64,000 nt of DNA, taken from Candidatus Marinamargulisbacteria bacterium SCGC AG-343-D04. Its GTDB lineage: Bacteria > Margulisbacteria > Marinamargulisbacteria > GCA-2716485 > GCA-002719695. The notes beneath the pieces were generated by a model that saw only the letters and a program-made list of their open reading frames with translations, did not search any database and was not told where the DNA came from. The DNA lies in contig QFBQ01000004.1 of NCBI GenBank assembly GCA_003265885.1, forward strand, positions 473 through 64,472, written 5' to 3'. The position numbers and the translations under genes are program-made. Of the stretch, positions 5,079 through 57,008 are shown in pieces (the first letter of the stretch is position 1; every line of letters begins with the position of its first letter).

Positions 5079-5137
5079 ATTTCACTCTTGTTTGGAACTA
5101 TAAAAAAAGTATTCTCTTCAATAAAGGAGTTACATAG

Positions 5138-14030: not shown

Positions 14031-14543
14031 ATGAGCCTAAAATACAAACGAATAACACTCATTGGAATGTCTGGTGTAGGAAAAACAACATTCGGAAAAG
14101 AACTTGCGAAACAAGAATCCTATACCTTTATAGATACAGATCTTTTGATAGAAAAACAACTCCATTCTAAAATTAAACCCTATATTAAAAAATATGGTGA
14201 AAAAAATTTTAAAGCACTAGAAGAAAATACCATTTTAAACTTACCCATCGATGAACATACCATCATCTCCACTGGCGGCAGCGTTATTTATTCCGAAAAT
14301 GCCATGAATTACTTAAAAAAAGAGTCCACCATAGTCTATCTCAAAGACTCCCTTAAAAATATTAAAAATAGAATCAAAGATTTTAATAAACGAGGTCTCA
14401 TTATGGGAAATCACGACTCTCTTGAAAGTCTCTATAACGAACGAAGAAAATATTATGAAAACTACGCAGATATCACCATAAATTATCCTGATTTCTTTTC
14501 TATTTCAAAGATTTTACATACAATTACCTCACATCTATCATGA
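14031..14543 (+). CDS. aroK: Shikimate kinase
   Basis: LIGMSGVGKTT, DTD, ISTGGS, RGL lid, ERRKYY. Confidence 0.92.
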   Translation: MSLKYKRITLIGMSGVGKTTFGKELAKQESYTFIDTDLLIEKQLHSKIKPYIKKYGEKNFKALEENTILNLPIDEHTIISTGGSVIYSENAMNYLKKESTIVYLKDSLKNIKNRIKDFNKRGLIMGNHDSLESLYNERRKYYENYADITINYPDFFSISKILHTITSHLS

Positions 14544-15364
14544 CACAACATAAAACCTTAACACATCCAGGTTCTCTATCTGGAATAGGCATACACTCCG
14601 GAAACAAGGTATGTCTAGAGTTTTCTCCCTCAAAGGAAGAAGGGATAACATTTAAACAAAAACAAAATCCCCAAAAAAAACTCACTGTCAGCCCTAAAAC
14701 ATCACACTCCGAACATAATAGAGCAACCTGTCTCAAAAACTCATCCATGACCATTTCAACCCCCGAACACCTCCTATCCGCTTGCGCAGGCCTAGGATTA
14801 ACCCATCTATCCATTACCATAGACCAAGAAGAAATCCCCATTTTAGATGGAAGCGCAAAGCCATTCATAGACCTCTTTACGTCACTTGGAATAACAGCAT
14901 TACCTTCAACAGTAGCCCCTATTATCATTAAGGAACCCATACACCTCTACGAACATGACCAAGCTATTATAGTCACGCCCTCGTCAGCACCTATATTTAG
15001 CTATTTTTTGCATTACCCTCATCCCGTCATTAATACTCAATGTATTTCACTAGAGTTTACACAATCGTCTTATATCTCATCTATTTCTGAAGCTCGAACC
15101 TTTGGATTTGAAGAAGAAATTCAACACTTAATTAAAAATGGCCTCGCAAAAGGCGGTTCTCTTGATAACGCATTAGTCATAGGTGATACTGACTATATAA
15201 ACCCGCCTAGATTTCCAGACGAATGTGCCAGGCACAAACTATTAGACCTTATCGGTGACTGCTGGATTTTAAATAGACCTATTCATGGACATATCACAGG
15301 AATAAAGTCAGGACATTCTTTAAACAATGCATTGGTAAAACATCTGACAAAAATCCTAGCTTAA
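14540..15364 (+). CDS. lpxC: UDP-3-O-acyl-GlcNAc deacetylase
   Basis: GIGIHSG, TPEHLLSA, EIPILDGSA, ARTFGF, GGSLDNALV, HKLLDLIGD. Confidence 0.97.
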   Translation: MTQHKTLTHPGSLSGIGIHSGNKVCLEFSPSKEEGITFKQKQNPQKKLTVSPKTSHSEHNRATCLKNSSMTISTPEHLLSACAGLGLTHLSITIDQEEIPILDGSAKPFIDLFTSLGITALPSTVAPIIIKEPIHLYEHDQAIIVTPSSAPIFSYFLHYPHPVINTQCISLEFTQSSYISSISEARTFGFEEEIQHLIKNGLAKGGSLDNALVIGDTDYINPPRFPDECARHKLLDLIGDCWILNRPIHGHITGIKSGHSLNNALVKHLTKILA

Positions 15365-15383
15365 AACAAAAATCTTCACATAC

Positions 15384-15692
15384 TTAAAGCCCCAAAGATC
15401 GTCTCTCTAGCTCTCTAATCTTTCTCAGCTTCTTTTTCAGCTCTTTTATTGTTTGAATAACCGACTCCTCTTCATCATCATCCTGTTCCTTTGAAGATAC
15501 TTTTTTTCGCTTGGCCTTCATTAACGACTGTTTATGAGACTCATCTGCTGCATGAACCGTACTTCCCGAATGATGACCTAGCTTTGAAACAAGCTCCGCC
15601 TTAAAGGAAACATCAGAATCTGCTTTTTGAAAGATCTGCTTTTTGACATCTTTATTTTGATTTAAATTAAACTGTGTACTTAAATCAACCAT
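15384..15692 (-). CDS. Hypothetical protein, 102 aa
   Basis: GGGGGG RBS before ATG; acidic patch and C-terminal coiled coil. Confidence 0.7.
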   Translation of the reverse strand: MVDLSTQFNLNQNKDVKKQIFQKADSDVSFKAELVSKLGHHSGSTVHAADESHKQSLMKAKRKKVSSKEQDDDEEESVIQTIKELKKKLRKIRELERRSLGL

Positions 15693-15704
15693 AATCCCCC
15701 CTAA

Positions 15705-15848
15705 TTAAAGTTCCGTATCCTCATCCTCAAAAACATCATCAAGCTCTTTTAATAAATCTGGGTTAATATCTCCTACTACTTCTTTGGCCTTATCTAAAAG
15801 TTCCTCAGATGGTCTTTTTTTAAAAAAATCTAAATTCAAATCTGACAT
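15705..15848 (-). CDS. Small acidic hypothetical protein, 47 aa (absent from the ORF track)
   Basis: My translation: MSDLNLDFFKKRPSEELLDKAKEVVGDINPDLLKELDDVFEDEDTEL*; fills the gap between same-strand neighbours. Confidence 0.7.
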   Translation of the reverse strand: MSDLNLDFFKKRPSEELLDKAKEVVGDINPDLLKELDDVFEDEDTEL

Positions 15849-15854
15849 AACTTA

Positions 15855-16178
15855 TTACCCCTTTTTGATTTTTTTAATCGTAGCCAAAACCTCTTTTTTT
15901 AAATTAGCATCCTTTAATAATTTTTCTTTTAATTCTTGCACCATCTTAATATCATCTTTCCCCATTTTGGGCCCAATTATGCCTTCTAATTTTAAAACCA
16001 ACATAATATGAGTCACCAACTCCTCCCCAACATGCCCGCCAAGTTGAGGAAAGACCTTTTTTAAAACAGTTTCTAATTGAATATTTTTTTCAATTTGAGA
16101 AGGAGAAAACAAGGATGTTCTTTTATTAGAACCCTTTGATTGATTATCTTGCTTACCTTTACTATCTAGTTTTGCCAT
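15855..16178 (-). CDS. Hypothetical protein, 107 aa
   Basis: Same-strand tight spacing within the serS-ArsR run; no family recognised. Confidence 0.7.
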   Translation of the reverse strand: MAKLDSKGKQDNQSKGSNKRTSLFSPSQIEKNIQLETVLKKVFPQLGGHVGEELVTHIMLVLKLEGIIGPKMGKDDIKMVQELKEKLLKDANLKKEVLATIKKIKKG

Positions 16179-16211
16179 CTATAAACAGATAAACGTAAAA
16201 AATAAAAACTA

Positions 16212-16499
16212 TCATGCACCTGATTTTGGTACCATTTGTCCAAAAGCATCCCAAATAAGATTAAACGAATCAAAATCAATTGAATAAAATACTTTTCTAC
16301 CCTCTTTTCTAGATTTAGCAATTCCTGCTTTTTTTAACATATTCAAATGATGAGACGTCGTGGACTGCTCAAGGTAAAATCGTTTCTCAATATCCTGAGC
16401 AAACATTTCCTTATTCTTCTGTAATAAAGAAATAATCTCTAGGCGCTCTTCATTAGCTAGAGCTTTAAAAAGTTTTATAAATTTTTCGTTATCTTGCAT
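16212..16499 (-). CDS. ArsR/SmtB family transcriptional regulator
   Basis: FKALANEERLEII, QSTTSHHLNMLKKAGI, RKEGRKVFYS. Confidence 0.93.
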   Translation of the reverse strand: MQDNEKFIKLFKALANEERLEIISLLQKNKEMFAQDIEKRFYLEQSTTSHHLNMLKKAGIAKSRKEGRKVFYSIDFDSFNLIWDAFGQMVPKSGA

Positions 16500-20996: not shown

Positions 20997-21005
20997 AAAA
21001 TACTA

Positions 21006-21243
21006 ATGACTTATATTTCGCTCCTTCGTGGAATAAATGTGAGTGGTCAAAAAAAAATCAACATGAATGACCTAAAAAATTTATATGAATCTCTTGGTTT
21101 TCAAAACGTAAAAACCTATATTCAAAGTGGACATGTAATGTTTTCTACCCCCTCAAAAAATAAATCTAATTTAAAATTACTATAGAAAAAGCCATTCAAA
21201 AAATATATAACGGACGGCATTGCAAAAGAAACCGACAAACTTA
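21006..21243 (+). pseudogene. DUF1697 family 5' fragment, frameshifted and truncated
   Basis: MTYISLLRGINVSGQKKINMNDLKNLYESLGFQNVKTYIQSGHVMF is the DUF1697 N-terminus as I recall it. TAG at 21183-21185; similarity continues briefly in another frame (ITIEKAIQK). Confidence 0.8.
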
Positions 21244-21561
21244 AAGGGTTAATTAAGTTTCCTGCAGATAAAATCGTTCCCGCTCTTCTTAAAAAAGAAA
21301 TAATAGATACAATAAACAATCTAAAATTTCTTTATAATTCGAAAAGCAACACTACAGGTATATCAAAATAAAAACTGTACAGATCCTACAGAAATCACAA
21401 GAAATTTATTAGAGAACGCTGGCATTGCTCAAGAAAATCAATCCCATGCTAAAACCCTAAAGTTTGAAGAATTTTTGCGCAATCTTCAAGCATCAGCAGC
21501 AAGCAACCTTAGCCCAAGTGAAGCCATAGAACATCTTGAGCAAAAACTGAAACCTAATTAA
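21186..21561 (+). pseudogene. Start-less reading-frame remnants of an unknown gene
   Basis: Two consecutive open frames without ATG (…ITDGIAKETDKLKG…SK* and …TDPTEITRNLLENAG…KLKPN*, stop 21559-21561). Confidence 0.45.
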
Positions 21562-21570
21562 CTGGAATAA

Positions 21571-25711: not shown

Positions 25712-25892
25712 AGATATCTCCAAAAAAAGATTAATACTTTAATTGTCAATCATGAAAGCAAAAAATTCAAATGAAAAATATCGCAACATTAAATTCAAAT
25801 ACTATCAATGGTATAATAAAAACGATGATTTTTTTCTATGCTATTAATAAAATGTATGTCAATTTCAAACAAGAAACAAAGCTCACATTATT

Positions 25893-26639
25893 ATGACAAA
25901 AAAAATAAACGATTTTAAACATATTCGTCAAAACTTTACCCCACACTCAGAAAAAGATATAAAAAGTATTGCTCAATTTAACTTTTCAAAAGAAGAATGG
26001 GTATCACGTTTTCACGATATATTAATAAAACACAATATTCCACTTGTACTTTTATACGGGACTTGTTTAGGAATAGTACGAGATAAAAAAATTATTGATA
26101 ATGATACCGATGCCGATTTTGGAATATTTCTTGAAGATCTATCTAAGCTGTTTTCATGCATACCCGAGCTTCTCGACAATGGCTACTTTATTTCTGGAAG
26201 AGGTTTATTCCAGATCTCATTTAGCCTACCCAACATAAATTTTTATATCGACATCTGGCCAATTAAAAAAGTCACAAATCCATTCTTAAGACTATTTAAA
26301 ATGAAGTGGTTGTGTGACCATGTCTATTTTAAACAAGACTTCTTCAACACCCCCGAATCTATACAATTTTTAGAGAGAAACTACTTAACCCCTCATCCTA
26401 AAGAACTTTACCTTGAAACAGTCTACGGTCTCGACTGGAGAACTCCCATTAAAAATCGTTTTTCTGGTCCAAGAGGCGCTCTATCTCAATATATCAATAA
26501 GTGTTTTGTAGATTTTCCAATACCCTCTCAATTCTCCGGAGACAATTCTCTCGGAACGTTTAAACCATGGGTATCCTATATTTTAAAAAAATTCTTTCCA
26601 AAATCACGTATATCCTCCATGTTCAATCACCCAAAATAA
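25893..26639 (+). CDS. LicD-family nucleotidyltransferase-fold phospho(no)transferase, copy 1
   Basis: YGTCLGIVRD...NDTDADFG (LicD GTxLGxxR...DxD), YLETVYGLDWRTP. Confidence 0.85.
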   Translation: MTKKINDFKHIRQNFTPHSEKDIKSIAQFNFSKEEWVSRFHDILIKHNIPLVLLYGTCLGIVRDKKIIDNDTDADFGIFLEDLSKLFSCIPELLDNGYFISGRGLFQISFSLPNINFYIDIWPIKKVTNPFLRLFKMKWLCDHVYFKQDFFNTPESIQFLERNYLTPHPKELYLETVYGLDWRTPIKNRFSGPRGALSQYINKCFVDFPIPSQFSGDNSLGTFKPWVSYILKKFFPKSRISSMFNHPK

Positions 26640-26658
26640 AATACTACATGTCGCATCT

Positions 26659-27426
26659 ATGACTAAAAACATCAAAAAAAATCCAAAAGAAATCAAGTCC
26701 TTTTCCGAAATGGAAAAAATATTTAGAACTAACATCCAAGAAGAAACAACACAAAATATCACTCTTAAAAATGAAGACTGGCTAATAAAATTCAATCAAA
26801 TACTGTCTAAGAACAATATAAAAACGATACTTTTATTTGGATCTTGTTTAGGAGTTATTCGCCAAAATTCGCTCATTGACTACGATCACGACGCAGATAT
26901 TGGCATTTTTTTTGAAGACCTTTTATCTTTTCATAACTGCTTACCTGAGTTAGAAAAAGAGGGATTTTATATATCTAAAACCAAAAAATTCAAAATTCAT
27001 ATTAACATGCCAAACACCGACTTCTGTATAGATCTTATGCCTGTCAAAAAAATTCAAAATATTTTCTTTAAACTATTTGGATATAAATGGTTTTGTGACA
27101 TGATATATTTTAAAGATAATTTTTTTGAATCCCCAAAAAAAATAAACTTTAAGTCCCAAGTTTTTTTTACTCCCAACCCTACAGAACTATATTTAGAAAA
27201 AACTTATGGTAAAAATTGGCGAACTCCAATAAAAAATAGAAATGCTCACTTACGTCCAGTATTATCACAAATCATAATTAAATATTTTGTAGACTTTCCT
27301 GTCCCTCTTGAGTTTTCTGGAGATAACTCTCTTGGCACATTTAAACCTTGGATATCAAAACTCTTAATAAAAACCTGTCCTAATGCTAAAATCACTTCAT
27401 CATATAAACACCCTAAATCACAATGA
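26659..27426 (+). CDS. LicD-family protein, copy 2 (paralog of copy 1)
   Basis: [10 protein letters not shown]...[21 protein letters not shown]; shares [13 protein letters not shown] with copy 1. Confidence 0.85.
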
Positions 27427-29021
27427 AAAAAACAAGTCACCTTAAACAACTCATTCAAAGCAAACAGCTAGAGTTCCTTATGGAAGCCCATAATGGCATG
27501 AGTTCAATCATTGCCCAAGAAGCCGGATTTAAAGGAATTTGGGGAAGCGGATTATCTATATCCGCAAGTCTTGGAGTCAGAGACAACAATGAAGCCTCCT
27601 GGACTCAAGTCATCGATGTTCTAGAGTTTATGAGCGATGCAACTGACATTCCCATTCTATTAGATGGTGATACAGGTTATGGAAACTTTAATAATGTAAG
27701 GCGTCTAATTAAAAAACTAGAACAACGTGACATTGCTGGAGTTTGCATCGAAGATAAACTCTTTCCAAAAACAAACTCATTTATTAACGGAGAATCTCAA
27801 GATTTAGCTGACATTGACGAATTTTGTGGAAAAATAAAAGCAGCTAAAGACACTCAAAAAGATCCAGATTTTTGTGTTGTTGCTAGAGTTGAGGCCTTTA
27901 TTGCTGGTTTAGGACTTGAAGAAGCTCTAAAACGAGCGGAAGCTTATGAAAATGCAGGTGCAGACGCCCTTCTCATTCACAGCAAAAAATCAACTGCTGA
28001 AGATATTGTCGACTTTATGAAACATTGGAAAAAAAACACCCCTATCATTATTGTCCCAACTAAATATTACTCAACTCCTACCGAACTTTTCAATAAAATT
28101 GGCATATCTACTATAATTTGGGCAAATCACTCTATCAGATCTTCTGTTCAGGCCATTAAAGAAACTGTCAACACCATTCATAAAGAACAGCACTTAAAGA
28201 ATATAGAAAGCAATATTGTATCCGTTTCAGAAATTTTTAGATTACAAGGTTCCGATGAACTTGCTCAAGCTGAAAAACAGTATCTTCCCGGGTACGAGCT
28301 ATCTCTATCTAGCATCATATTAGCTGCTGGAGCATCAAAGATAGACAGCCTAACTGAAAACATCCCAAAATGCCTGATAGATATCAATAACAAAACTATA
28401 CTAGATCATCAAATTGATGCTTTTAAAAAGTTTAATATCTCCGATATTACAATTGTAAGAGGCGATAAAAAAGAAGCTTTTCTTGAAAACCAATATACAA
28501 ATATCGACAATAACTCGTTTCATGAAACTCACGAAGTATATTCTCTATATTTAGCTAAAGAAAAACTAAAAAATGAATGCTTTATTAGCTATGGAGACAT
28601 TGTTTTTAAAGACTACTTTATACACGAATGTTTAAATAACAAATCTGATATCTCCATTATTGTAGATTCATCATGCAAAAAAGATGCCTCAAATAAAGAT
28701 TACATAAGCGCAACAAAAGAATATGACCCCATTAACTTTAATCAAGACACCTACCTAACAAAAATGAATAGAAAAATCGACGCCAACTCAATTCATGGAG
28801 AATTTATCGGATTAATCAAAACATCTAAAAAAGGAAGCAATATCCTATTAGAAGCCCTAAGCTCCTTACCTGAAGAAGAACTAAAAACAATGCATATGCA
28901 AGACCTACTTAACCACTTAATTGAAAAAGGTCATCAAATCTCTATCATATATATTCAAGGAAATTGGGCCGACGTAAATACCATTGCAGATCTTCATCTA
29001 GCCACTAACTTATATGCTTAA
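27423..29021 (+). CDS. pepM: Phosphoenolpyruvate mutase fused to a C-terminal NTP-transferase (cytidylyltransferase-like) domain
   Basis: PepM-diagnostic [10 protein letters not shown] (EDKx5NS), [14 protein letters not shown]; C-terminal IILAAG...PKCL. Confidence 0.96.
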
Positions 29022-30153
29022 AACCACCGAAATTGGAGAGGCATTATCTTCATACGGATTCAATTTTTATTCGGGTGTTCCTTGCTCATTTTTAAAAGAT
29101 CTTATCAATTATGCCATCAACCATTGTAACTATATATCTGCAACAAACGAAGGAGATGCCGTCGCTACCTGCGCAGGAGCCGCTTTAAATGGAGAAAAAA
29201 CAGTGATGCTCATGCAAAATTCCGGCCTAGGAAACACTGTTTCACCACTCACATCTCTCATTTATACCTTCAAGCTACCGATACTCATGTTTTGCAGTCT
29301 CCGAGGTGAAAAAGGAATTCAAGATGAACCTCAGCATGAACTAATGGGAGAAATCACCTCGTCCTTACTTAAAACTATGAATATTAACTATGCTGTACTC
29401 AATCCAAATATCAATACAGCTCTAAAACAATTAGATCAAGCCAATTTCTACATAGAAAAAGGCCTTCCCTTTTGTTTTATAGTCAAAAAAAACAGCTTTG
29501 AACCTCATAAACTAGAACGCTCTCAACTCCCGACCAAACATAAAGAAACAGACTATAACAACATCAACACCACTCCATTAGGCTCTCGAACAGACGCCCT
29601 CAACATCATTAAAAAAAGTCAACCCAAACATGCTGTATTACTCGCAACTACCGGAAAAACAGGACGTGAGTTATTCGAGCTAGGACATGAACCTAACCAT
29701 TTTTATCAAGTAGGGTCTATGGGCTGCATTAGTGCTATAGGCCTAGGTTTAGCTTCATCACATAAAAGGTTACCCACCATCGTGATAGATGGAGACGGCG
29801 CAGCCTTAATGAGACTTGGAAGTTGGGCTACCAACGGCTACTACAGCCCTAATAACCTATGCCACATTCTTCTAGATAATGAAGTCCACGATTCTACAGG
29901 AGGACAAGATACAGCCTCTAAAGCCGTAAACTTCGTTCGTTTAGCGAGCTCTATGAACTACCCAAAAGCATTTTCTGTCACATCATTTGATGACTTAAAA
30001 CGTCGCTTAGAAGAATGGACAAACTCCCCTCAACTCACACTTATTCATGTTAAAATAAATCCAGGAAGTCCTAAAAAACTAGGAAGACCCACTCTTACAC
30101 CTATCGAAGTCGGTAATCAACTGAAGCAGTATATAAAGGACACTCATGATTAA
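29014..30153 (+). CDS. aepY: Phosphonopyruvate decarboxylase
   Basis: [40 protein letters not shown], ThDP motif DGDGAALM...[10 protein letters not shown]. Confidence 0.95.
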
Positions 30154-31993
30154 AACTGCCATTATTTTAGCCGCAGGCCGAGGAACAAGACTTCGCCCAC
30201 ACCTAGATCCTGAATTGCCAAAAGGAGCTCTCCCTCTTAACAAAATTTCAAAAGATAAAATCCACACTAATAATGCAGAAAGTGTCATTGAATTCAGTAT
30301 CATTCAACTACTTCAACAAGGTATCGAACACATCTTTATTGGCACCGGACACGGCCATGAATGGTATGAAAACCTTGCAAAAAAATATCCTCAAATCACT
30401 TGTATTTACAACCCTATCTTTCAAGATTCAGGAAGCATGCATACTCTTTCCTTGATTATCCCACACATCAGCGAAGACTCCCTATTACTAGAATCTGACC
30501 TAATTTACGAAAAAAGAACACTTCGATATCTTCTAGAATCTCCTACTCAAAACGGACTCCTAAGCACTCCTTACTACTCTTTTGGAGATGAAGTTTTCAT
30601 TGAAAACACTGAAGATCAACTAAAATCTATGAGTAAAACAGCTCCAGACTCTCTAGAGAAGGCTCAAGTCTTAGCAGGTATAACAAAATGCTCTCTTCCT
30701 CTACTTCAGGCTATGAATACCTTCTACTCTTCTCAAGATTCTCACAATATAGACTATGAAGATGCACTCGTTCAGTCCTCAATACCTGTAACTCTCTTAC
30801 ACAACTCCGCAATTTCTATCATGGAAATTGATGATGCTATTCATCTAAAAAAAGCAGAAAAAACATGGACTACATTATGCCTTCATAACGCCACAGAACA
30901 CCATGAAAGAAAATATTTACTAAATCCAGGTCCAGCAACAACATCCAGCACCGTCAAAAAGGCACAGATTATCCCCGATATTTGTCCAAGAGAAGAAGAA
31001 TTCAATGCTGTTATGACAGAAATCTGTGATCAAATCAACTATATGTCATCTATATCTCCTCTTTCCTTGGCTACAACCTTGTTCAGTGGCTCAGGAACAG
31101 CTGCCGTTGAATCCATGATCAGTTCTTGTATTTCTTCAACAGAAAAATGCCTCATTATCGACCAAGGCGCTTATGGAAAACGAATGCAAAAAATTGCAGA
31201 AATTCATGGCATTCCTCACGAAATTTATACCCCAAACCCACTTAAAGAACTTCCCCTAAACACACTAGAAACACTGCTTAAGTCAGATTCATTCACACAT
31301 CTTGCTATTGTGCATCATGAAACCTCTACAGGCCTATTAAACAATATTCACGATATTGGAAAACTATCAAAAAAATACAATATTTTGCTATGTGTAGATG
31401 CTATGAGTTCTTTTGGCGCAACACCTATCGATCTCATTCAAGACAATATCGCATTCTGCGCTGCTAGCAGCAACAAAAACATCCAAGGGATGGCAGGAAT
31501 TAGTTTTGTAATCGCACAAAAAGAAGAACTCGAAGCTCTAAAAAACAAGCCAAAAAAAACCCTATATTTAGACCTATACGACCAATATCAGTACGCCATC
31601 ACTCAACACCAATGCAGATTCACCCCTCCTGTTCAATGTATGTATGCACTAAGAGAGGCATTACGTGAATTAAAACAAGAAGGACTCAAAAATAGATATG
31701 CACGCTATCAAGCTATGTGGGCACTCATCACAAACTGCCTCGTAAACCATGGTTTTGATTATATAATCGATGATAAAGTCCACGGAAAACTGATCACATC
31801 CTTCATTATCCCAGAAAATAGTTCCTTTTCATTCGACGACTTTCACAGTTTCTTATACCGACACCATATCACTATTTATCCAGGAAAAATAGCAGAACAC
31901 AACACCTTTCGTATCGCAACAATTGGGGATTTAAACACTGAAGATATAGATCATATTTGCAAGATTATCGACAATTATTTCAGTAAAAAATAA
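30146..31993 (+). CDS. Phosphonate cytidylyltransferase-like (PntC/LicC) domain fused to a 2-aminoethylphosphonate aminotransferase (AepZ/PhnW-like)
   Basis: N-terminal IILAAGRGTRL, LLLESDL; C-terminal LLNPGPATT, HHETSTG, VDAMSSFG, SSNK (PLP Lys), RFTPP. Confidence 0.92.
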   Translation: MIKTAIILAAGRGTRLRPHLDPELPKGALPLNKISKDKIHTNNAESVIEFSIIQLLQQGIEHIFIGTGHGHEWYENLAKKYPQITCIYNPIFQDSGSMHTLSLIIPHISEDSLLLESDLIYEKRTLRYLLESPTQNGLLSTPYYSFGDEVFIENTEDQLKSMSKTAPDSLEKAQVLAGITKCSLPLLQAMNTFYSSQDSHNIDYEDALVQSSIPVTLLHNSAISIMEIDDAIHLKKAEKTWTTLCLHNATEHHERKYLLNPGPATTSSTVKKAQIIPDICPREEEFNAVMTEICDQINYMSSISPLSLATTLFSGSGTAAVESMISSCISSTEKCLIIDQGAYGKRMQKIAEIHGIPHEIYTPNPLKELPLNTLETLLKSDSFTHLAIVHHETSTGLLNNIHDIGKLSKKYNILLCVDAMSSFGATPIDLIQDNIAFCAASSNKNIQGMAGISFVIAQKEELEALKNKPKKTLYLDLYDQYQYAITQHQCRFTPPVQCMYALREALRELKQEGLKNRYARYQAMWALITNCLVNHGFDYIIDDKVHGKLITSFIIPENSSFSFDDFHSFLYRHHITIYPGKIAEHNTFRIATIGDLNTEDIDHICKIIDNYFSKK

Positions 31994-32008: not shown

Positions 32009-32842
32009 TTATTTAGCTATAAACTCTCGTATATACTCTGCCATTCGTCGAGGATACTCTAAAGGCAACAAATGCGTAGCCTCCTCACATCGTATGGCCC
32101 TAAACTGCGGACATGATTTTCGAAAACGATTCACCATAGACTCTGAAATTACATCCGAATACTGCCCATAAATCAATAATATATCAGAATCTATTTCTTT
32201 AAGATTTCTCCATATATAAGGAGCATGCCATACCCCTGTTTCATAAATTTTTGCTTCCCATTTCACATCAAATGCCAAGGACACCCCATTAGTTGACGTA
32301 ACAAAAATACTTTCAATATAATAGCGTAACGATTCATCTGAAAAATATTTAAAAACTCTCTTTTTTCGATATTGGCAAAACACATCCTCCATAGAGTCAA
32401 AACATGTTCGTCGCTTTAATGTACGATTAATATAAGGATGAACTCGACGGTGCAAACCCAATAACCAAAAAAATGAATATCCAAAAAAAACTGGATACGA
32501 AAAAATAGCAGGATCAATCAGAATCATTTTTCTAGGTCTACACAAACCTCTCATAGCTGCAAGCAACCACAATGTTGCCCCAATAGAATGACCCACTACA
32601 ACATCCACCTCTTGTCTTTCCTTTAAAAAAGAATGAACATCATCAACAAAAGGATCCCAATTTCTCAAAGAAGGAGGGATTAAAGCCGGCCAATGAGGCC
32701 TCAACAACATAGACTGTATCGTATACTCTGGCAAACAGGAAAAAAGAGGGGTATACACCGATGGAGGATAGCCATTAGCATGTAAAAAATACAGAGAAGA
32801 ATCTCCATCCCCAAAACATTCGGACGGAATTTGAATGGACAT
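32009..32842 (-). CDS. Alpha/beta fold hydrolase
   Basis: HANGY oxyanion motif, GHSIG nucleophile, C-terminal HLLP. Confidence 0.9.
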   Translation of the reverse strand: MSIQIPSECFGDGDSSLYFLHANGYPPSVYTPLFSCLPEYTIQSMLLRPHWPALIPPSLRNWDPFVDDVHSFLKERQEVDVVVGHSIGATLWLLAAMRGLCRPRKMILIDPAIFSYPVFFGYSFFWLLGLHRRVHPYINRTLKRRTCFDSMEDVFCQYRKKRVFKYFSDESLRYYIESIFVTSTNGVSLAFDVKWEAKIYETGVWHAPYIWRNLKEIDSDILLIYGQYSDVISESMVNRFRKSCPQFRAIRCEEATHLLPLEYPRRMAEYIREFIAK

Positions 32843-34393: not shown

Positions 34394-35606
34394 TTATTTT
34401 CCTACATTCATTCCCGCAATATAACCCGTAGACCAGGCATTTTGAAAATTGAAGCCCCCTGTAACACCATCTATATTCAAACATTCCCCCACAACAAACA
34501 GGCCAGGAATAGCTTTGGACTCCATCGTTTTCATTGACATTGTATCACAATTCACCCCGCCACTCGTTACAAACTCTTCTTTAAAAACACCTTTCGCCGT
34601 CAAGCTATACCGATCTTTTTTCAAAAGATCGACTAAGACTCTCAATTTTTTTTGAGATAACGTCGACCATGTACATCCATCAGCATCACACTTAGTTAAA
34701 AAATAGCGCCATAAGCGTAAAGGAATGTCTGAAAAGAGTGACTGAGTCTGACATTGCTGATTAGAGCCCGCATTCTTCATCTCAGAAAAACGATTAAACA
34801 CATCCTCATGAGAAAAGCCTGGCAACCAATCTACGTCAAAAGAAGATCTATATCCACATTCATGTAAATATCGAGCAGACCACGCCGATGCCTTAATTAT
34901 CGCAGGCCCGCTCATACCCCAATGAGTAATCAATAATGCCCCCTCTTGAGGCTTGAAACCAGGAACTGTAATCGTAGCATTAGCTACAGACAAACCCATC
35001 AACGAACACAACTGCTTATCTTGAATAGTAAAGCTGAACAAAGACGGAACAGGATCCACCACATCCATTTCTAAAGATCGTAAAAAATCATAGCCTTGTC
35101 TCCCCCCCCCCTGAGGCCATAATCACTCGATTAAATACCCGTTCTGGAGCATTATGAAAATGACAAGAAAAATCACCGGACTCTAAACGGTGAATAGATT
35201 TAACACCACATGCCGTTTGAATCTTTACCCCCACAGACTTAGCCTCCTGTAACAAACAATCCACAATATCTTGAGACAAGTCTGATACAGGAAATACTCT
35301 ATTATCGTCCTCCACTTTCAGCTCAACACCTCTAGATGAAAACCATTGCATCGTATCTTCAGGTTGAAATTGCTGAAAAACACTCAACAAAGCCTTTCCA
35401 CCTCTTGGATAAAACTCTGTTAATTGTCGGGTATCAAAGCAGGCATGTGTTACATTACACCTTCCCCCACCTGAAATCCGTACTTTTTGCAAGACTTCTT
35501 TACCTTTCTCAAACAAAATAACATCCGAATCTGGAAAAAAATATTTAGCATGAATAGCCGAAAAAAAACCCGATGCTCCGCCTCCTATAACAACTATAGA
35601 TACCAT
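34394..35606 (-). pseudogene. HI0933/YhiN-family FAD-dependent oxidoreductase split by a frameshift in a G10 tract (or a sequencing indel)
   Basis: N half: GGGASG, ISGGGRCNVT. C half: DPVPSLF, FVTSGGV, GGFNFQNAW. Removing one G at 35102-35111 gives a continuous 403-aa frame (…ASGGGRQGYDFLRSLEMDVVDP…). Confidence 0.88.
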
Positions 35607-39712: not shown

Positions 39713-40645
39713 CTAAAATCCCAAAATAGATTTCACCCATTCATTCCAATATTTTGTAGACCCCCAATCGGGAAAATGATGTTGAAAATGAGCCTCTTGA
39801 GACTGTACAGCACACCATGCTGCAAAATGAATCTGGCGCATAATACGTAATGCTGGAATAAGATCCAATTCACGTGCTGAAAAATCTCGAAACACCGAAT
39901 ACCCTTCTTGAAACCACGCTAATTCCTGTTTACACTGCCCTGTCTCATCAGGCAATAACATCCATACATCTTGAACAGAAGGTCCTATCACTACATCGTC
40001 AAAATCCACAAGATATACATGCTCTCCAGGTCGATAAATAATATTTCCATAATGACAATCTCCATGAATTAAAAACATCTCACACCGTGAAAACAATGAA
40101 TCCGCTTTTTGAATAAATTGCTCAATAGCACGTATACTAACCGCTCTGTAGTCCTCAGGAATAACCCCACAATCACAGAGGGTTTTTAGATGTCTAGTTG
40201 TCGCAATCTTGGGTCTCCATTTCATACGTCCAGAATCCGTAATAGTCTGACCTAAATTATGAAGTCGACCTAAAAGACGCCCTGTTTCTTTCCATAAATC
40301 CTCATTGAATTCATCCATCACCCTACCCCCTTTTTTAGGAAAAAGAGCAAAGGGAATCTCGTCCAACATGAACAAGGTTTTGTCATTAAAGGTAAGAGGT
40401 GGAATCACAGGCAAATCGTTATCATGCGCATGCTTTAAAAAAAAATGTTCACCCAAAATCATGTCCGTCGACCATCGATTGGGCCGATAAAATTTTGCAA
40501 TCACTCTATCCTGAGAATCCAACTCCATTTCATAAACACGGTTAATATAACTATTTCGAGGAATACACACATTGGTCAATCTCTGCTGACAAGCATCTTC
40601 CACCGCTTGCATAGCTGACTCCAATGTTAAGGATTCCCAGATCAT
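39713..40645 (-). CDS. srkA: Stress-response Ser/Thr kinase SrkA/RdoA
   Basis: SYINRVY, KFYRPNRW, IHGDCHYGN, VDFDD. Confidence 0.9.
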   Translation of the reverse strand: MIWESLTLESAMQAVEDACQQRLTNVCIPRNSYINRVYEMELDSQDRVIAKFYRPNRWSTDMILGEHFFLKHAHDNDLPVIPPLTFNDKTLFMLDEIPFALFPKKGGRVMDEFNEDLWKETGRLLGRLHNLGQTITDSGRMKWRPKIATTRHLKTLCDCGVIPEDYRAVSIRAIEQFIQKADSLFSRCEMFLIHGDCHYGNIIYRPGEHVYLVDFDDVVIGPSVQDVWMLLPDETGQCKQELAWFQEGYSVFRDFSARELDLIPALRIMRQIHFAAWCAVQSQEAHFQHHFPDWGSTKYWNEWVKSILGF

Positions 40646-43226: not shown

Positions 43227-43814
43227 ATGACAGACGGAAAAATTAATATCGAAAGGTATACTGATGAAATTTCAAAATTAATGATGTCTATTAATTTTGA
43301 AACAATAAAGGTCGCTGCAAGTAATATTCGTCAAAGAATGGAAGCCGGAGGCCAGATTTTCTTTGCTGGAAATGGCGGTTCTCTTGCCATATCACATCAT
43401 GCAGCTTGTGATATGGGAAAAGGTTTATACCGATTCTATAAAGAAAAGTTACGAGTCCGATCGCTTGGAGTAAATGCTGCTCTCACCTCAGCACTAGCCA
43501 ATGATTTTGGATATGAAAATATTTTTTCAGCTGAATACCAAATGGTTCGCTCCAATTCCATCGTTAATTCCAACTCCAATGACGTTGTAATTTGCATCTC
43601 TTCCTCCGGAAATTCGGATAATATTCTGAATTTAGCGACTACTGCAAAAGATGATGGCACAATGGTAATCGGGTTATCAGGGTTTTCTGGTGGAAAATTA
43701 AAAGACAATTGTGATATTTCGGTTCATGTTTCTGCAGAAAACTACCTTATGATTGAGTTGGCACATCAGCATATTCTTGATCTCATTTTTCTTGAATTAT
43801 GGGTAAATGAATGA
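43227..43814 (+). CDS. gmhA: Phosphoheptose isomerase (SIS domain)
   Basis: GNGGS, ALANDFGYENIF, ISSSGNS.NI, LSGFSGG. Confidence 0.9.
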   Translation: MTDGKINIERYTDEISKLMMSINFETIKVAASNIRQRMEAGGQIFFAGNGGSLAISHHAACDMGKGLYRFYKEKLRVRSLGVNAALTSALANDFGYENIFSAEYQMVRSNSIVNSNSNDVVICISSSGNSDNILNLATTAKDDGTMVIGLSGFSGGKLKDNCDISVHVSAENYLMIELAHQHILDLIFLELWVNE

Positions 43815-45046
43815 GCGAAAATTTGATTATAATTGGAGGTGGGAAAGGGGTTAGAATGGCAGAATATATGCCAGGCATTCCAAAACTACTTCTCCCACTT
43901 GACAATGAACAAACTGTATTATCACGTCTAATAAAGCAAACACATGCAAGTTCTGTTTATCTAGCACTTAACTCCGACTCAAAAAAAATCACCGATGAAT
44001 TATCCCCTCCTTCAGTAAATTTCCAAATTAGCATCGAAGAAGAACCGTTGGGCACCTTTGGGGCCCTAAAGTTATTAGCACAAAGATATAGCTCTGTTTT
44101 ACCCGAAAAAATCACAGTTATTCTTGGGGACTTGGTATGCAATGAATATCAAAAATATCAGGTAAATTTGATGAAAGAACTAACCAAGAGAGATGGAAAC
44201 TGGTTCTTTTTTACAAAAAATAATCATCCGCATGATAGTGATCGAATAGATCTAGAGGATAACAGAAGAATAAAAGCTTTATATAAGAAAACAGAGACCT
44301 CTCCTAAATTCTTTGTAAATAAAACTGTAAGTGGATTGTATCTATTAAACTTAAAAGATGTCTTACAAACAGATTTAGATAGAGGAGATATAGTTATGGA
44401 TTTCCTCCCAACATTAATATCTCAACAAAACGCTTTCGCAACTGAGCTTCTATGTAATTTAAATGACATTGGCACCCCCGATCGTTACAAAGCACTAATT
44501 AAATCTGGCAGTTATTCTGTGAAACGAAAATATTTATTAATGGATTTAGATGGAACGCTAATCGTGGATAGAGGATCAAGCCCTACAGCTTATGAAATTA
44601 CACCCACTCTTAATCCAGTTGCCGTGAATTTACTTAAAAGATGTAATAAAAACAGAGTTAAAGTTATAATTATTACAAATCAAGGAGACATCGCCAAAGG
44701 CTTTCTTTCTAAGCCTCAGTTTGAAAATGAGATTAGATCGATTGAAGATCAACTTTGGCAAGCAGGTGTTTGGTTCGATGATTTATTTTATTGCCCACAT
44801 CACCCTGAAAGAGGGTATGAAGGAGAGATCATTGATCTAAAAATTGAATGTGAATGTCGTAAGCCCAAGTCTGGAATGTGGCAGAAAGCGAAGGAGAAGT
44901 GGTCTATCAGCACAGACAATGCTGTGTTTGTCGGAGATACTCATTTTGATGAAGGTTTTTGCAGAGCTGCAAACTTAAAGTACTATGACATCAACTCTAT
45001 ACAGGGCCAACTTGAAGAGTTAGATAAATTTATTGGAGAGTCTTAA
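43811..45046 (+). CDS. Sugar-phosphate nucleotidyltransferase (HddC-like) fused to heptose-bisphosphate phosphatase (GmhB-like HAD-IIIA)
   Basis: GGGKGVRM...PK, EPLGTFGA, DIGTP; then DLDGT, ITNQ, YCPHHP...CECRKP, VGD. Confidence 0.88.
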   Translation: MSENLIIIGGGKGVRMAEYMPGIPKLLLPLDNEQTVLSRLIKQTHASSVYLALNSDSKKITDELSPPSVNFQISIEEEPLGTFGALKLLAQRYSSVLPEKITVILGDLVCNEYQKYQVNLMKELTKRDGNWFFFTKNNHPHDSDRIDLEDNRRIKALYKKTETSPKFFVNKTVSGLYLLNLKDVLQTDLDRGDIVMDFLPTLISQQNAFATELLCNLNDIGTPDRYKALIKSGSYSVKRKYLLMDLDGTLIVDRGSSPTAYEITPTLNPVAVNLLKRCNKNRVKVIIITNQGDIAKGFLSKPQFENEIRSIEDQLWQAGVWFDDLFYCPHHPERGYEGEIIDLKIECECRKPKSGMWQKAKEKWSISTDNAVFVGDTHFDEGFCRAANLKYYDINSIQGQLEELDKFIGES

Positions 45047-45048
45047 CT

Positions 45049-46029
45049 ATGATTTTAGTATCGGCCCCCTTGAGGGTAAGTTTTTTTGGTGGTGGGTCAG
45101 ACATAGAAAGTTATTATGAAAATCATGGAGGTGCTTTTCTAAGTTTGACTATTGATTCACGCATTTATTTAACTGTAAACCAAACAACAAACAATGAAGT
45201 AAAAGTTCACTACAGTACAACTGAATTAGTAAAAGATGCTTCTGAACTTGCACACCCCTTAATAAGAGAAGCTCTATTGATGTACAACAAGAAAAACAAC
45301 ATAGAAATTGGATCCTTTGCTGATATGCCCACTATTGGAACAGGCTTAGGGTCTTCCTCAACTTTTTCTGTAGCATTAATTGGAGCATTAAAAACGTTAG
45401 CTGGACAAGCATTTTCAAGTCGTGATTTAGCAGAAGAAGCTTGTCATCTAGAAATTAATCGTTGTGGAGAACGCATTGGAAAACAAGATCAATACGCTGC
45501 AGCTTTTGGGGGTCTAAATTTCTATGAAGTTGATACATCTGGTCGAATTAAAGTGAGTAAAAATCTGGTTACACGTGATATTGAAAACATATTAGAAGAT
45601 AGTATTTACCTCGTAAACACTGGTGTAAAACGAAGCGCGTCGTCTTTGTTAAAGCATCAGATTAAGAACCTGAAAAATTCAAAATCATCTTTAGATAATC
45701 AAGCACGATTGGTTGAAATGGCATATAAAGCATATAACTATTTAGTTGAAGGAGATCTAGACCAGTTTGGACAGCTTTTGCATGAATCCTGGTTATGCAA
45801 GAAGAATATATCAGGCCTAATATCAGATAATAGTCTAGATGATATCTATACTGAAGACCTAAATGCTGGAGCAATTGGTGGAAAGCTACTTGGAGCAGGT
45901 GGTGGTGGATTCTTTCTTTTTTACGTCCTCAAAAAAAATCGAAAAAAGTTTGAAACGCATTTTCAAGGAAAGTTCCGTAAAATACGAATATCACAACAAG
46001 GGTTTATGGTGAATTATGAAGCTAAATAA
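45049..46029 (+). CDS. D-glycero-alpha-D-manno-heptose 7-phosphate kinase (HddA-like GHMP kinase)
   Basis: APLRVSFFGGGSD, GTGLGSSS, GKQDQY, GGKLLGAGGGGF. Confidence 0.9.
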   Translation: MILVSAPLRVSFFGGGSDIESYYENHGGAFLSLTIDSRIYLTVNQTTNNEVKVHYSTTELVKDASELAHPLIREALLMYNKKNNIEIGSFADMPTIGTGLGSSSTFSVALIGALKTLAGQAFSSRDLAEEACHLEINRCGERIGKQDQYAAAFGGLNFYEVDTSGRIKVSKNLVTRDIENILEDSIYLVNTGVKRSASSLLKHQIKNLKNSKSSLDNQARLVEMAYKAYNYLVEGDLDQFGQLLHESWLCKKNISGLISDNSLDDIYTEDLNAGAIGGKLLGAGGGGFFLFYVLKKNRKKFETHFQGKFRKIRISQQGFMVNYEAK

Positions 46030-46975
46030 AGCAGTAATAACTGGCGGTTGCGGGTTTCTTGGATTAAATTTAACGAATTGGCTTATTTCACAAGGATGTG
46101 AAGTATTAGTAATAGATAATCTCTCTACCGGAAAACTTTCAAATCTTGATACTGCAAATCCACTAATAACGTTTCTTGAGCATGATTTACTTAAACCAAT
46201 TCCTCAAGACTTACTTAACGGTGTAGATATAATATTTCATTTTGCGGCTAATGCAGATATTCGCCATGGAATGAAGCATAGTGAAAAAGATATTGATCAG
46301 AATATAGTTGTAACTGAGCGCATATTAAGAAGTGCTGTTGAAGCTAATATAAAAGACATAGTTTTTTCTTCTACAGCAGCAGCTCTTGGTGAGCCTGATA
46401 TTTTCCCTACTCCAGAAGATATATCAATCCCAAAGCAAACTTCTCTTTATGGAATGTCTAAACTTGCAGCAGAAGGCATATTGTCAGCTTACTCAGCTAA
46501 CTACGGCTTACGAGTTAGTGTATTTAGATTTGTAAGTATCGTAGGTCCATACTACTCCCATGGACATATTATTGATTTTGTACATAAGTTGAGAGACAAC
46601 CCTAATACCCTAGAAATTTTAGGTGATGGACAGCAAAGAAAAAGTTATTTACATGTAGATGACATGATACATGCTATAGAGATTGTACTTAAAAATCATA
46701 ACGATATAAGCTCAGAATTCTTTGAAGTTTACCATTTGGGCAACAAGGAGTATTGCAAAGTTGTGGAGTCTGCAGACACAATATGTTCATCACTTGGTGT
46801 AAATCCATCTTACACGTTTACAGGTGGAAAACGTGGCTGGATTGGAGACAGTCCTTTCGTTCACCTCGACACTTCTAAATTGAGAAAGTTAGGATGGGAA
46901 CCCACAAAAAACATCCTACACTCCATACATGAAACAACAATTTGGCTTAAAGACAGAGGTGAGTTCAATTCGTAA
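46016..46975 (+). CDS. NAD-dependent nucleotide-sugar epimerase/dehydratase
   Basis: TGGCGFLG, DNLSTG, SSTAA, YGMSK, GWIGD. Confidence 0.9.
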   Translation: MKLNKAVITGGCGFLGLNLTNWLISQGCEVLVIDNLSTGKLSNLDTANPLITFLEHDLLKPIPQDLLNGVDIIFHFAANADIRHGMKHSEKDIDQNIVVTERILRSAVEANIKDIVFSSTAAALGEPDIFPTPEDISIPKQTSLYGMSKLAAEGILSAYSANYGLRVSVFRFVSIVGPYYSHGHIIDFVHKLRDNPNTLEILGDGQQRKSYLHVDDMIHAIEIVLKNHNDISSEFFEVYHLGNKEYCKVVESADTICSSLGVNPSYTFTGGKRGWIGDSPFVHLDTSKLRKLGWEPTKNILHSIHETTIWLKDRGEFNS

Positions 46976-48095
46976 ATTACTAATAAACTTTCTAACATCA
47001 AATACTGGCGGTGTTATTAATTTTAAAAAAGATGTAATAAAACATATTGATCACAATGCTAAAGATTTTGAATTTGAAATTTACTGCTTGGTGTCTGTAG
47101 AAGCCGAAAAGCAGATTGGAACTCTAAAGAACATTAAATATTGTCGAGGTTTAGATATTCCTAAGTCTTTTATAAAAAAAATATTATTTTATGAGAGAAA
47201 ACTTGAGGGTCTTGTAAAAATTCATAACATTGATATTGTCTTAAATTTTGGAGATATCCCAGCCAATGTTTCCGCTAAACAAATTTTTTATTTTGACTGG
47301 CCATATGCAGTGTATGACGATTTCAAAATCTGGTCTCGCTTACGCTTTCAAGATCTAGGTTCGAAATTGGTCAAAAGATTATATTTCAAACTAACGAATG
47401 ATCGTTTAGAACATTATGTAGTTCAAACAAACACAATGAAAAAAAGGTTATCAGCAAAAATAAAAAATCGCCCTATTTCGGTTATCGATGTTGGTTTTAA
47501 TGAAGAAGAATCAAAAAAAACCAATTGCTCAGTTATAGACACCCCCAAATCTTTGAAACCTACCTTGATTTATCCCACAATAATGTACGCTCATAAAAAC
47601 GTTGAAATACTATTATCCGTCGCCAAGTTATTAAAAGCTCAAAATTTTGAAGCAACATTCGAATTAACTTTTTCAGAGAATTCAGGAAAAAAAGAATCCC
47701 GTTTTATTAAATCAGTGAAAAAGCATGGTCTATCGGACTACTTTTCATTCTTAGGTCGCTTAAGTAGGAATTCCTTAGTACAAAAAGTAAAGTCCTCTAC
47801 TGCTATTATAATGCCTACACTAATCGAAACATATGGCCTCCCATATTTGGAAGCTCAATTATTCGAGAAGGTGATGTTCACTAGTGATCGAGATTTTGCC
47901 CGAGAAATTTGTGGAGATTCTGCCATTTATTTTGACCCTAACAATGCGGCTGACATTGCAGAAAAGATAGTTGAAAATATTTTATCTGAAAGCCGTATGT
48001 CAAAGCATATTATGGCTACAAATGTTGAGCGAGCTAAACGTGTAAGCTGGACTGAGTCAACTCGGCGTTTTCTAGAGACTGCGACTCTGGTGTAA
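46929..48095 (+). CDS. Glycosyltransferase, GT4/GT-B family
   Basis: HKN, MPTLIETYGLPYLEA (Ex7E), YFDP. The true start may be GTG near 46959. Confidence 0.88.
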   Translation: MKQQFGLKTEVSSIRKLLINFLTSNTGGVINFKKDVIKHIDHNAKDFEFEIYCLVSVEAEKQIGTLKNIKYCRGLDIPKSFIKKILFYERKLEGLVKIHNIDIVLNFGDIPANVSAKQIFYFDWPYAVYDDFKIWSRLRFQDLGSKLVKRLYFKLTNDRLEHYVVQTNTMKKRLSAKIKNRPISVIDVGFNEEESKKTNCSVIDTPKSLKPTLIYPTIMYAHKNVEILLSVAKLLKAQNFEATFELTFSENSGKKESRFIKSVKKHGLSDYFSFLGRLSRNSLVQKVKSSTAIIMPTLIETYGLPYLEAQLFEKVMFTSDRDFAREICGDSAIYFDPNNAADIAEKIVENILSESRMSKHIMATNVERAKRVSWTESTRRFLETATLV

Positions 48096-56988: not shown

Positions 56989-57008
56989 AACACAACTCTC
57001 CTCTCTGT

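Follow-up and report, generated by a model that had tools for sequence, protein, structure and literature searches.

The five-gene operon described here lies on a stretch of 64,000 nucleotides (the window) of contig QFBQ01000004.1 from Candidatus Marinamargulisbacteria bacterium SCGC AG-343-D04, and it probably encodes a phosphonyl-tailoring system of the Pnt type. In such a system, 2-aminoethylphosphonate (AEP) would be synthesized, activated as its cytidine monophosphate (CMP) derivative, CMP-AEP, and transferred by LicD enzymes for decoration of the cell envelope. The operon comprises five co-oriented open reading frames (ORFs) on the forward strand at 25893-31993, encoding LicD1, LicD2, a phosphoenolpyruvate (PEP) mutase (PepM or Ppm) fused to a nucleotidyltransferase (NT) domain, a phosphonopyruvate decarboxylase (Ppd), and a second NT domain fused to an AEP transaminase (AepZ). 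The coordinates and gene order given in the original prediction agree with the ORF listing to the base. The make-activate-install logic proposed there also holds, with PepM, Ppd and AepZ making the head group, the NT domain of gene 5 activating it and LicD installing it.

The pathway can be envisaged in five steps. The N-terminal PepM domain of gene 3 would isomerize PEP to phosphonopyruvate, and Ppd, the product of gene 4, would decarboxylate the latter to phosphonoacetaldehyde, drawing the unfavorable mutase equilibrium forward. The C-terminal AepZ domain of gene 5 would transaminate phosphonoacetaldehyde to AEP, and the N-terminal PntC domain of the same protein (NT2) is predicted to convert AEP and cytidine triphosphate (CTP) to CMP-AEP and pyrophosphate. 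Finally, the soluble LicD1 and LicD2, with a metal bound at their D-x-D-x-D motif, would move the AEP-phosphonyl group from CMP-AEP to acceptor hydroxyls with the release of CMP. The acceptor, made elsewhere in the genome, would most likely be a lipid-linked glycan, for example the core or O-antigen of lipopolysaccharide (LPS), at the cytoplasmic membrane face. The first four steps, from PEP to CMP-AEP, are well supported by homology to characterized enzymes; transfer by LicD, the identity of the acceptor and what the NT domain of gene 3 (NT1) does are inferred.

The operon is tightly packed. While licD1 and licD2 are separated by a spacer of 19 bp, the last four genes overlap at their junctions by 4 bp (ATGA, shared by the licD2 stop and the pepM start), 8 bp and 8 bp, which fits translational coupling of these four. 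No transmembrane segments were predicted in any of the five proteins. A chance origin is ruled out by the E-values of the core enzymes (1e-114 to 1e-119) and by a gene order that is repeated in unrelated genomes.

Synthesis and activation of 2-aminoethylphosphonate

The three synthesis enzymes were assigned with the curated equivalog cut-offs of NCBIfam. The PepM domain scores 395.5 bits to TIGR02320 (cut-off 319.55), and Ppd, in which both thiamine pyrophosphate-binding domains were found (TPP_enzyme_C and TPP_enzyme_N; PF02775, PF02776), scores 380.5 bits to the phosphonopyruvate decarboxylase model TIGR03297 (cut-off 312.5). The AepZ domain reaches 380.9 bits with the PhnW-AepZ model TIGR03301 (cut-off 360.8), whereas the catabolic PhnW model TIGR02326 gives gene 5 only 325.5 bits, below its cut-off of 400.8. 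The Ppm-specific motif EDKXXXXXNS (EDKx5NS) is present in the window PepM, as it is in 120/120 of its closest homologues, and the lysine motif of AepZ, SNKNIQG, aligns with that of Tde1415, a protein of Treponema denticola. The identities originally given to PepM, Ppd and AepZ are thus borne out, and the profile searches proposed alongside them (PepM TIGR02320, Ppd TIGR03297, LicD PF04991 and the NT domains) all returned matches.

The window PepM is unusually close to the PEP mutase of the mollusc Mytilus edulis (1M1B), which its PepM domain matches with an E-value of 1.6e-134. In addition, a protein of 534 aa from the freshwater mussel Potamilus streckersoni (P0061) matches the whole PepM+NT1 length with 57% identity; unless this record represents contamination, the PepM+NT1 fusion is common to bacteria and animals.

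For the activation step, the reference is Tde1415 (PDB 6PD1/6PD2), with which residues 1-605 of the 615 in gene 5 align (E 4.3e-138); no record identical to the gene 5 sequence was found. Rice et al. 2019 (PMC6697681) showed that Tde1415 is a bifunctional PntC-AEP transaminase, which couples CTP with AEP to give CMP-AEP, AEP being much preferred to phosphocholine as the substrate. PntC enzymes are recognized by the signature GXG(T/S)RX4-8PK, which contains Arg15 and Lys25, together with Lys153 and with Glu104 and Glu196, which contact the amine of AEP; the substitutions R15A, K25A and K153A each leave <10% of the activity of Tde-PntC (PMC6697681). NT2, which carries a Pfam PF12804 match at residues 5-134, has the signature sequence GRGTRLRPHLDPELPK and keeps all five residues checked in the alignment (R15, the PK lysine K25, E104, K153 and E196), and it is classed as a PntC-type cytidylyltransferase on these grounds.

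The LicD pair and the acceptor

Both LicD proteins exceed the gathering cut-off of the Pfam LicD family (PF04991, 22.6 bits), LicD1 with 31.9 bits and LicD2 with 29.4 bits. They are 47% identical to each other and belong to a subfamily of proteins of ~245-255 aa, for which HMMER returned 15 clusters at E<=1e-30 among 1.84 billion (1.84e9) representatives. Twelve columns of this subfamily are invariant, including G56, L59, G60, R63 and D71/D73/D75, and all twelve are kept in LicD1 and LicD2, in agreement with the two LicD genes of the original prediction. The D-x-D-x-D motif formed by D71/D73/D75 corresponds to the metal-binding motif of FKRP, whose catalytic domain is also the best PDB match (E 3.9e-08, query-normalized TM-score 0.51) of the AlphaFold (AF2) model of LicD1, a model with a predicted local distance difference test score (pLDDT) of 92. 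The C-terminus of the subfamily is a conserved basic-hydrophobic tail, FKPWVSKILKRFFPN..KHP.

In related clusters, a single LicD gene is located upstream of pepM. LicD1 is 57%, 52% and 48% identical to the single LicDs of loci L081, L001 and L082, respectively, and LicD2 is 45%, 39% and 37% identical to them. LicD1 and the single-copy LicDs group to the exclusion of LicD2 in 84/100 neighbor-joining bootstraps, and LicD1, judged by sequence, is the orthologue of the single LicD; by position, it is LicD2, not LicD1, that overlaps pepM. The best match of LicD2 anywhere is LicD1, and its identity to any other protein among the 1.84 billion representatives is <=45%. Most simply, licD was duplicated locally in tandem and LicD2 then diverged faster, an older duplication being conceivable. 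Profile scans of metagenome contigs with LicD1 and LicD2 gave no confirmed relative.

Linkage to AEP genes is the main argument from which we infer that these LicDs use CMP-AEP. Members of the subfamily are found directly upstream of pepM in L001, L081, L082, L085/L086 and L090, and the member in L087 lies 3 kb from an NT-AepZ gene. The subfamily is thereby beside or near AEP genes in six of the seven informative contexts, the exception being P0243, in which the LicD gene is next to a GT9 heptosyltransferase and no phosphonate genes occur within 8 kb. The role predicted for LicD1 and LicD2 is hence the transfer of AEP-phosphonyl from CMP-AEP to an acceptor. In pneumococcus, LicD1 and LicD2 place phosphocholine on two different N-acetylgalactosamine (GalNAc) residues from a single donor (PMC4649388). 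By analogy, one donor most likely supplies both LicDs of the window, which would act on two acceptor positions or on two different acceptors, and two acceptor sites for two LicDs are plausible on this precedent.

LicD-like genes were also seen at archaeal loci. A Methanomethylophilaceae locus (L044, 14270-18679) carries AEP genes and two LicD-like ORFs, one of them within a frame of ~680 codons (14270-16303), so that several LicDs beside AEP genes are not unique to the window. In a Thermoplasmata locus (L046, 13115-13954), a LicD-like gene is split into two ORFs.

Several points weigh against the proposed pathway of AEP activation and transfer to a glycan. The PF04991 match spans only residues ~46-108, equivalent to profile positions 3-61 of 227. 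The best NCBIfam model for both LicDs is Mf1 (NF045866), a diacylglycerol/glycolipid cholinephosphotransferase, with 59.3 and 64.6 bits, well short of its cut-off (225), so that a lipid acceptor is also conceivable. No LicD-like enzyme shown to use CMP-AEP was found in the literature searched, and no glycosyltransferase, flippase or lipid-synthesis gene is adjacent to the operon. In NT2, moreover, the spacing from Arg to PK is nine residues, compared with 4-8 in the signature.

It is possible, albeit unlikely, that the operon instead makes phosphonolipids. The LicDs would then take AEP-phosphonyl from CMP-AEP and place it on a membrane lipid (diacylglycerol, ceramide or a glycolipid) and not on a polysaccharide, and the products would be AEP phosphonolipids such as those of Bacteriovorax stolpii and eukaryotes. 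Mf1, an enzyme of Mycoplasma fermentans, is the only NCBIfam model matched by both LicDs, although scores of 59-65 bits fall far short of its cut-off. The position of the operon outside any glycan locus, here and in the Margulisbacteria relatives L081, L082 and L090, is consistent with a lipid product, and the C-terminal basic-hydrophobic tail of the LicDs could bind a membrane surface. The phosphonosphingolipid cluster of B. stolpii likewise has a PF12804-fused Ppm (PMC8942020); however, the clusters assigned to phosphonolipids in the literature, as well as locus L091, carry CDP-alcohol phosphatidyltransferase-type enzymes and not LicD. In addition, the LicD-family enzymes of known substrate act on sugars, as in pneumococcal teichoic acid (PMC4649388) and in FKRP with its sugar acceptor (6KAM), and besides the subfamily member next to the heptosyltransferase, another is located in a GDP-sugar cluster. 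A lipid-linked glycan such as LPS is thus the favored acceptor, and a lipid its main rival.

The nucleotidyltransferase domain fused to PepM

NT1 shows a Pfam PF12804 match at residues ~297-405 of gene 3 (35.2 bits). Its nearest solved structure is that of Streptococcus pneumoniae LicC (Spn-LicC, 1JYK; E 7.5e-15), which it matches over the N-terminal 110 residues only, and it is 20% identical to NT2. The signature of NT1 is non-canonical: the loop is one residue shorter, the Arg is absent, and a Lys lies beside that position. Family statistics were taken from the 120 closest PepM+NT homologues of a search with at least 8000 matches, a mussel protein included, and all 120 equal gene 3 in length and architecture. 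Their loop consensus is LAASQGSLGELTKDxPK; the column of Tde-PntC Arg15 is a gap in 104 of them, and in 89 no basic residue occurs among the first five loop residues. The position of Glu104 holds Tyr in 116/120, that of Glu196 holds Thr, Ala or Ser, and that of Lys153 holds mostly Ser, with Lys25, Asp106, Trp218 and Asp220 essentially invariant. Having lost the catalytic Arg and the equivalents of E104/E196 and K153, NT1 falls outside the PntC enzymes and is classed only as a PF12804-fold domain. Of the two activating domains of the original prediction, PntC-type activation is therefore upheld for NT2, a Tde1415 homologue with its residues kept, and not for NT1.

A second, canonical NT accompanies NT1 in every related cluster examined. 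It is fused to AepZ in L001, L081, L082, L085, L090 and 11 other NT1-carrying GTDB loci, and it stands alone in the Fulvivirgaceae locus L091 and the Elusimicrobia locus L092. One LicD is present in each of the first five loci and none in L091 and L092, so the number of NTs does not track the number of LicDs.

These observations bear on the earlier suggestion that two activating domains imply two donors. NT1 and NT2 would then activate different head groups, NT1 acting for instance like LicC on phosphocholine or phosphoethanolamine, and one LicD would serve each donor. Such a division is improbable, as NT1 is generic to the PepM family, occurs with a second NT in clusters that have a single LicD or none, and lacks the arginine of GXG(T/S)R, the residue removed in the nearly inactive R15A variant, as well as the Glu residues that bind AEP. 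That the nearest solved relative of NT1 is a phosphocholine cytidylyltransferase, and that an identity of 20% places NT1 and NT2 in different subfamilies, can be counted in its favor, together with the retention of K25, D106 and D220 and with a conservation of NT1 like that of the pathway enzymes (43% to L001, versus 46-51% for NT2, AepZ and Ppd). Within the 64-kb window, however, neither the choline kinase LicA nor the permease LicB was found, nor any other choline or ethanolamine kinase or transporter for head-group supply, and the linkage of LicA and LicB to LicC/LicD that marks the lic (phosphocholine) pathway is accordingly missing there. An APH-family gene at 39713-40645 was considered as LicA and rejected, being of the SrkA/YihE type (285 bits, cut-off 194).

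From its sequence conservation, NT1 is probably a functional domain. Its residues indicate that it is not the AEP activator and that it is a conserved appendage of the PepM family with a degenerate pyrophosphate-binding loop; it could have a regulatory role, bind nucleotides or act as a cytidylyltransferase on some other substrate. The literature searched contained no test of the PF12804 domain fused to Ppm, and the NT enzymes characterized by Rice et al. 2019 (PMC6697681) were only those not fused to Ppm. A combination to which little probability is given is that the LicD pair has split functions, the divergent LicD2 having a new acceptor or donor, and that NT1 is either a non-canonical nucleotidyltransferase making a second CMP-phosphonate or an allosteric CMP-AEP sensor controlling PepM. 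If this were true, there would be two chemically distinct phosphonyl decorations on the LPS of Marinamargulisbacteria, and it would be clear what the domain carried by a third of all PEP mutases does. The five proteins are soluble and need no further donor genes, which makes them convenient for heterologous tests of CMP-AEP use by LicD and of the role of NT1, questions that concern the whole cluster class and not the window alone.

Genomic setting and comparison with known systems

The window has ~35% G+C and a strong negative GC skew. Its SecA is 70% identical to that of Candidatus Marinamargulisbacteria, with other Margulisiibacteriota following, and the closest PepM+NT proteins, at 63-68% identity, include Margulisiibacteriota and Marinamargulisbacteria names; the host, first described as probably of an uncultured lineage, is an uncultured member of the Marinamargulisbacteria. 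LpxC, a TolC-family protein, a PldA-like phospholipase and PilB/PilC are encoded in the window, and the first three of these point to a diderm with LPS. A Firmicute or Bdellovibrio-like host, which had been considered because of the GC skew, the secA-prfB synteny with Paenibacillus and the phosphonolipids of Bacteriovorax, was rejected in view of the SecA and PepM relatives and of these three diderm proteins. The contig of L081 (GCA_902591055.1) carries PepM+NT together with shared flanking genes, namely the Opp-like ABC transporter (70-78% identical), an ArsP-type permease (58%) and an alpha/beta hydrolase (46%), which argues that the operon is an old resident of this uncultured marine lineage. 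Upstream of the operon lies the divergent Opp-like transporter, of family 5 (peptide/nickel type), and downstream are the alpha/beta hydrolase, the permease, a glyoxalase and housekeeping genes (Table 1).

A role in AEP catabolism or salvage, in which the transaminase would run in the PhnW direction and environmental AEP be recycled, is highly improbable and was rejected: the AEP transaminase reaction is reversible, Tde1415 having been assayed from AEP to phosphonoacetaldehyde (PMC6697681), and ABC importer genes adjoin the operon here and in L081, but PepM and Ppd are biosynthetic enzymes above their equivalog cut-offs, the transaminase passes the AepZ model and fails that of PhnW, the transporter is divergently transcribed, and no phosphonatase, PhnA or carbon-phosphorus lyase genes are among the annotated window ORFs.

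Table 1. Genes and domains of the operon and features around it in the window
Feature	Position	Strand	Size or assignment
licD1	25893-26639	+	248 aa
licD2	26659-27426	+	255 aa
pepM+NT1 (gene 3)	27423-29021	+	532 aa
PepM domain, gene 3 residues 1-290	27423-28292	+	PEP mutase, predicted: PEP to phosphonopyruvate
NT1 domain, gene 3 residues ~294-532	28302-29021	+	PF12804 nucleotidyltransferase fold
ppd (gene 4)	29014-30153	+	379 aa
NT2+aepZ (gene 5)	30146-31993	+	615 aa
NT2 domain, gene 5 residues 1-250	30146-30895	+	PntC-type cytidylyltransferase, predicted
AepZ domain, gene 5 residues ~254-615	30905-31993	+	Pyridoxal phosphate (PLP)-dependent AEP transaminase, predicted: phosphonoacetaldehyde to AEP
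Divergent intergenic region	25724-25892		Between the Opp-like binding-protein gene (-) and licD1 (+)
Alpha/beta-hydrolase gene	32009-32842	-	277 aa; Abhydrolase_6; convergent with the operon
GDP-heptose-type gene set	43227-48095	+	gmhA, hddC+gmhB fusion, hddA, epimerase/dehydratase, GT4 glycosyltransferase

The divergent intergenic region is likely to hold the operon promoter. An extended -10-like element, TGGTATAAT, occurs there at 25809-25817 (+), a motif expected about once by chance in the window, and a scan for promoter and terminator consensus sequences stayed at chance level and was uninformative on the operon boundaries. Rfam searches of the window returned a single tRNA and, upstream of the operon, no riboswitch. 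The homologue of the alpha/beta hydrolase in L081 (12811-13650) is co-oriented within the operon, between ppd and NT-aepZ; the window gene has no NCBIfam match and is not present at the other loci compared. A functional link of this accessory gene to the pathway is possible, at low confidence.

The GDP-heptose-type gene set, in which the hddC+gmhB fusion joins an HddC-like NT to a GmhB-like HAD phosphatase and hddA encodes an HddA-like GHMP kinase, lies 11 kb from the operon. Its homologues occur near phosphonate genes in several other loci, a hint that it could be a candidate source of the AEP acceptor glycan. The set coincides with the only stretch of the window (44-52 kb) of near-zero or positive GC skew, and this segment may have been inverted or acquired. 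Elsewhere, the GC skew is uniformly very strong, at -0.2 to -0.3, the AT skew is positive and genes lie on both strands; in the related contigs L081 and L082 it is +0.17 and -0.17, and strong GC skew appears to be a property of the lineage.

Several other features of the window were recorded. A gene for an HI0933-like flavoprotein (34394-35606, -) is split into ORFs in different frames (35088-35606 and 34394-35068) by a frameshift near 35100-35110, the break coming after a G10 homopolymer; an error of sequencing or assembly, or else a phase-variable tract, seems more likely than an old pseudogene. The ORF of release factor 2, prfB (55881-56831, -), matches its model only from position 48, and upstream of it, in another frame (56916-56990, -), lies ATG...TTAGGAGAC TAT CTT TGA C, the classical Shine-Dalgarno-like element and CUU UGA C site of the +1 programmed frameshift of prfB. 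The Opp-like transporter has one ATPase gene, compared with the usual two of Opp systems, and between this gene and trpS is a stretch of 575 bp (20997-21570) without an ORF >=80 aa, which begins with a short, prematurely ending ORF (MTYISLLRGINVSGQKK...) and may be a gene remnant. At 218-2977 (+), a protein of 919 aa has a SpoIIE/PP2C-type phosphatase region and, at its C-terminus, an RsbW-like anti-sigma kinase domain, an unusual partner-switching fusion, and it is followed by the type IV pilus gene pair PilB/PilC at 3378-6340.

Among known systems, the lic locus of S. pneumoniae (LicA/B/C with LicD1/LicD2) is similar in its Kennedy-like logic, in which activation by a PF12804 cytidylyltransferase precedes transfer by LicD, and in its two LicD paralogues, which there serve two sugar positions with one donor (PMC4649388). 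In the window, by contrast, the head group would be made de novo with a carbon-phosphorus bond and carried by CMP-AEP, not CDP-choline, no choline kinase or permease is present, and the LicDs belong to a small divergent subfamily that matches Pfam on the N-terminal catalytic motif only. FKRP and fukutin, the eukaryotic CDP-ribitol phosphotransferases (PDB 6KAJ-6KAN), share with LicD1 the motifs G-x-x-L-G-x-x-R ... D-x-D-x-D and D-[IL]-W-P. FKRP differs in its low sequence identity (18-20%), its extra N-terminal stem domain, and its nature as a Golgi membrane protein that acts on the O-mannosyl glycan of dystroglycan.

At the level of the cluster, the possibility raised in the original prediction that the pathway is undescribed does not stand. 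Phosphonate clusters often with a second NT, and with LicD-like phosphotransferases or glycosyltransferases nearby, were reported by Rice et al. 2019 (PMC6697681). That study and Li & Horsman 2022 (PMC8942020) both cover clusters with an NT fused to Ppm, a second PntC (joined to the AEP transaminase in Tde1415 of T. denticola) and transferases resembling LicD. Synteny, proposed as a check, proved extensive: the same cassette recurs in relatives and in many phyla, and among 185,579 GTDB species genomes the gene 5 fusion has 230 confirmed relatives, in Spirochaetota, Bacillota, Campylobacterota, Gammaproteobacteria and methanogenic Thermoplasmata. The Tde1415 cluster resembles the operon in the two-domain architecture of gene 5 with its conserved PntC residues, and in having Ppm, Ppd, PntC-AEP transaminase, a second Ppm-associated NT and surface transferases nearby. 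Treponema-type loci, however, belong to another PepM clade, ~35% identical to the window PepM domain versus 68-71% for the PepM+PF12804 clade, and no NT1-type (PF12804) domain follows pepM in them (for example T. putidum, L031). In the window, moreover, pepM is directly preceded by two tandem LicD genes, the second of which is probably coupled to it in translation.

Closer counterparts are the cassettes of PepM+PF12804, Ppd and PntC-AEP transaminase, which were found in Margulisiibacteriota metagenome-assembled genomes (MAGs; L081, L082, L090), in an Alteromonas-labelled MAG (L001), in L085, and in Bacillaceae, Paenibacillus, Peptococcaceae and Spirochaetota. The order licD - pepM+NT1 - ppd - NT2+aepZ is the same, the licD/pepM overlap of L081 is also 4 bp, and PepM+NT1 of the Margulisbacteria-like contigs is 63-68% identical to that of the window. 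They differ in having one LicD or none within 10 kb, the tandem pair being confined to the window among these cassettes; L085 adds a PhyH dioxygenase and a methyltransferase, and L081 has the hydrolase inside its operon. Compared with L081, the window is a mosaic, with identities of 68% for PepM+NT, 69% for Ppd and 57% for LicD, but only 40% for NT-AepZ (53% to L082), which points to a replacement of NT-aepZ in one of the lineages.

What is new here is the host lineage and the tandem licD duplication, the cluster type itself having been known since its description in 2019. No paper linking Marinamargulisbacteria or Margulisbacteria with phosphonate synthesis was found in the searchable literature. 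With this operon, the Marinamargulisbacteria, a marine lineage that is uncultured and sister to the Cyanobacteria, would have a complete pathway for making, activating and transferring AEP, and the marine phosphorus redox cycle would gain a further candidate source of phosphonates bound to the cell surface.

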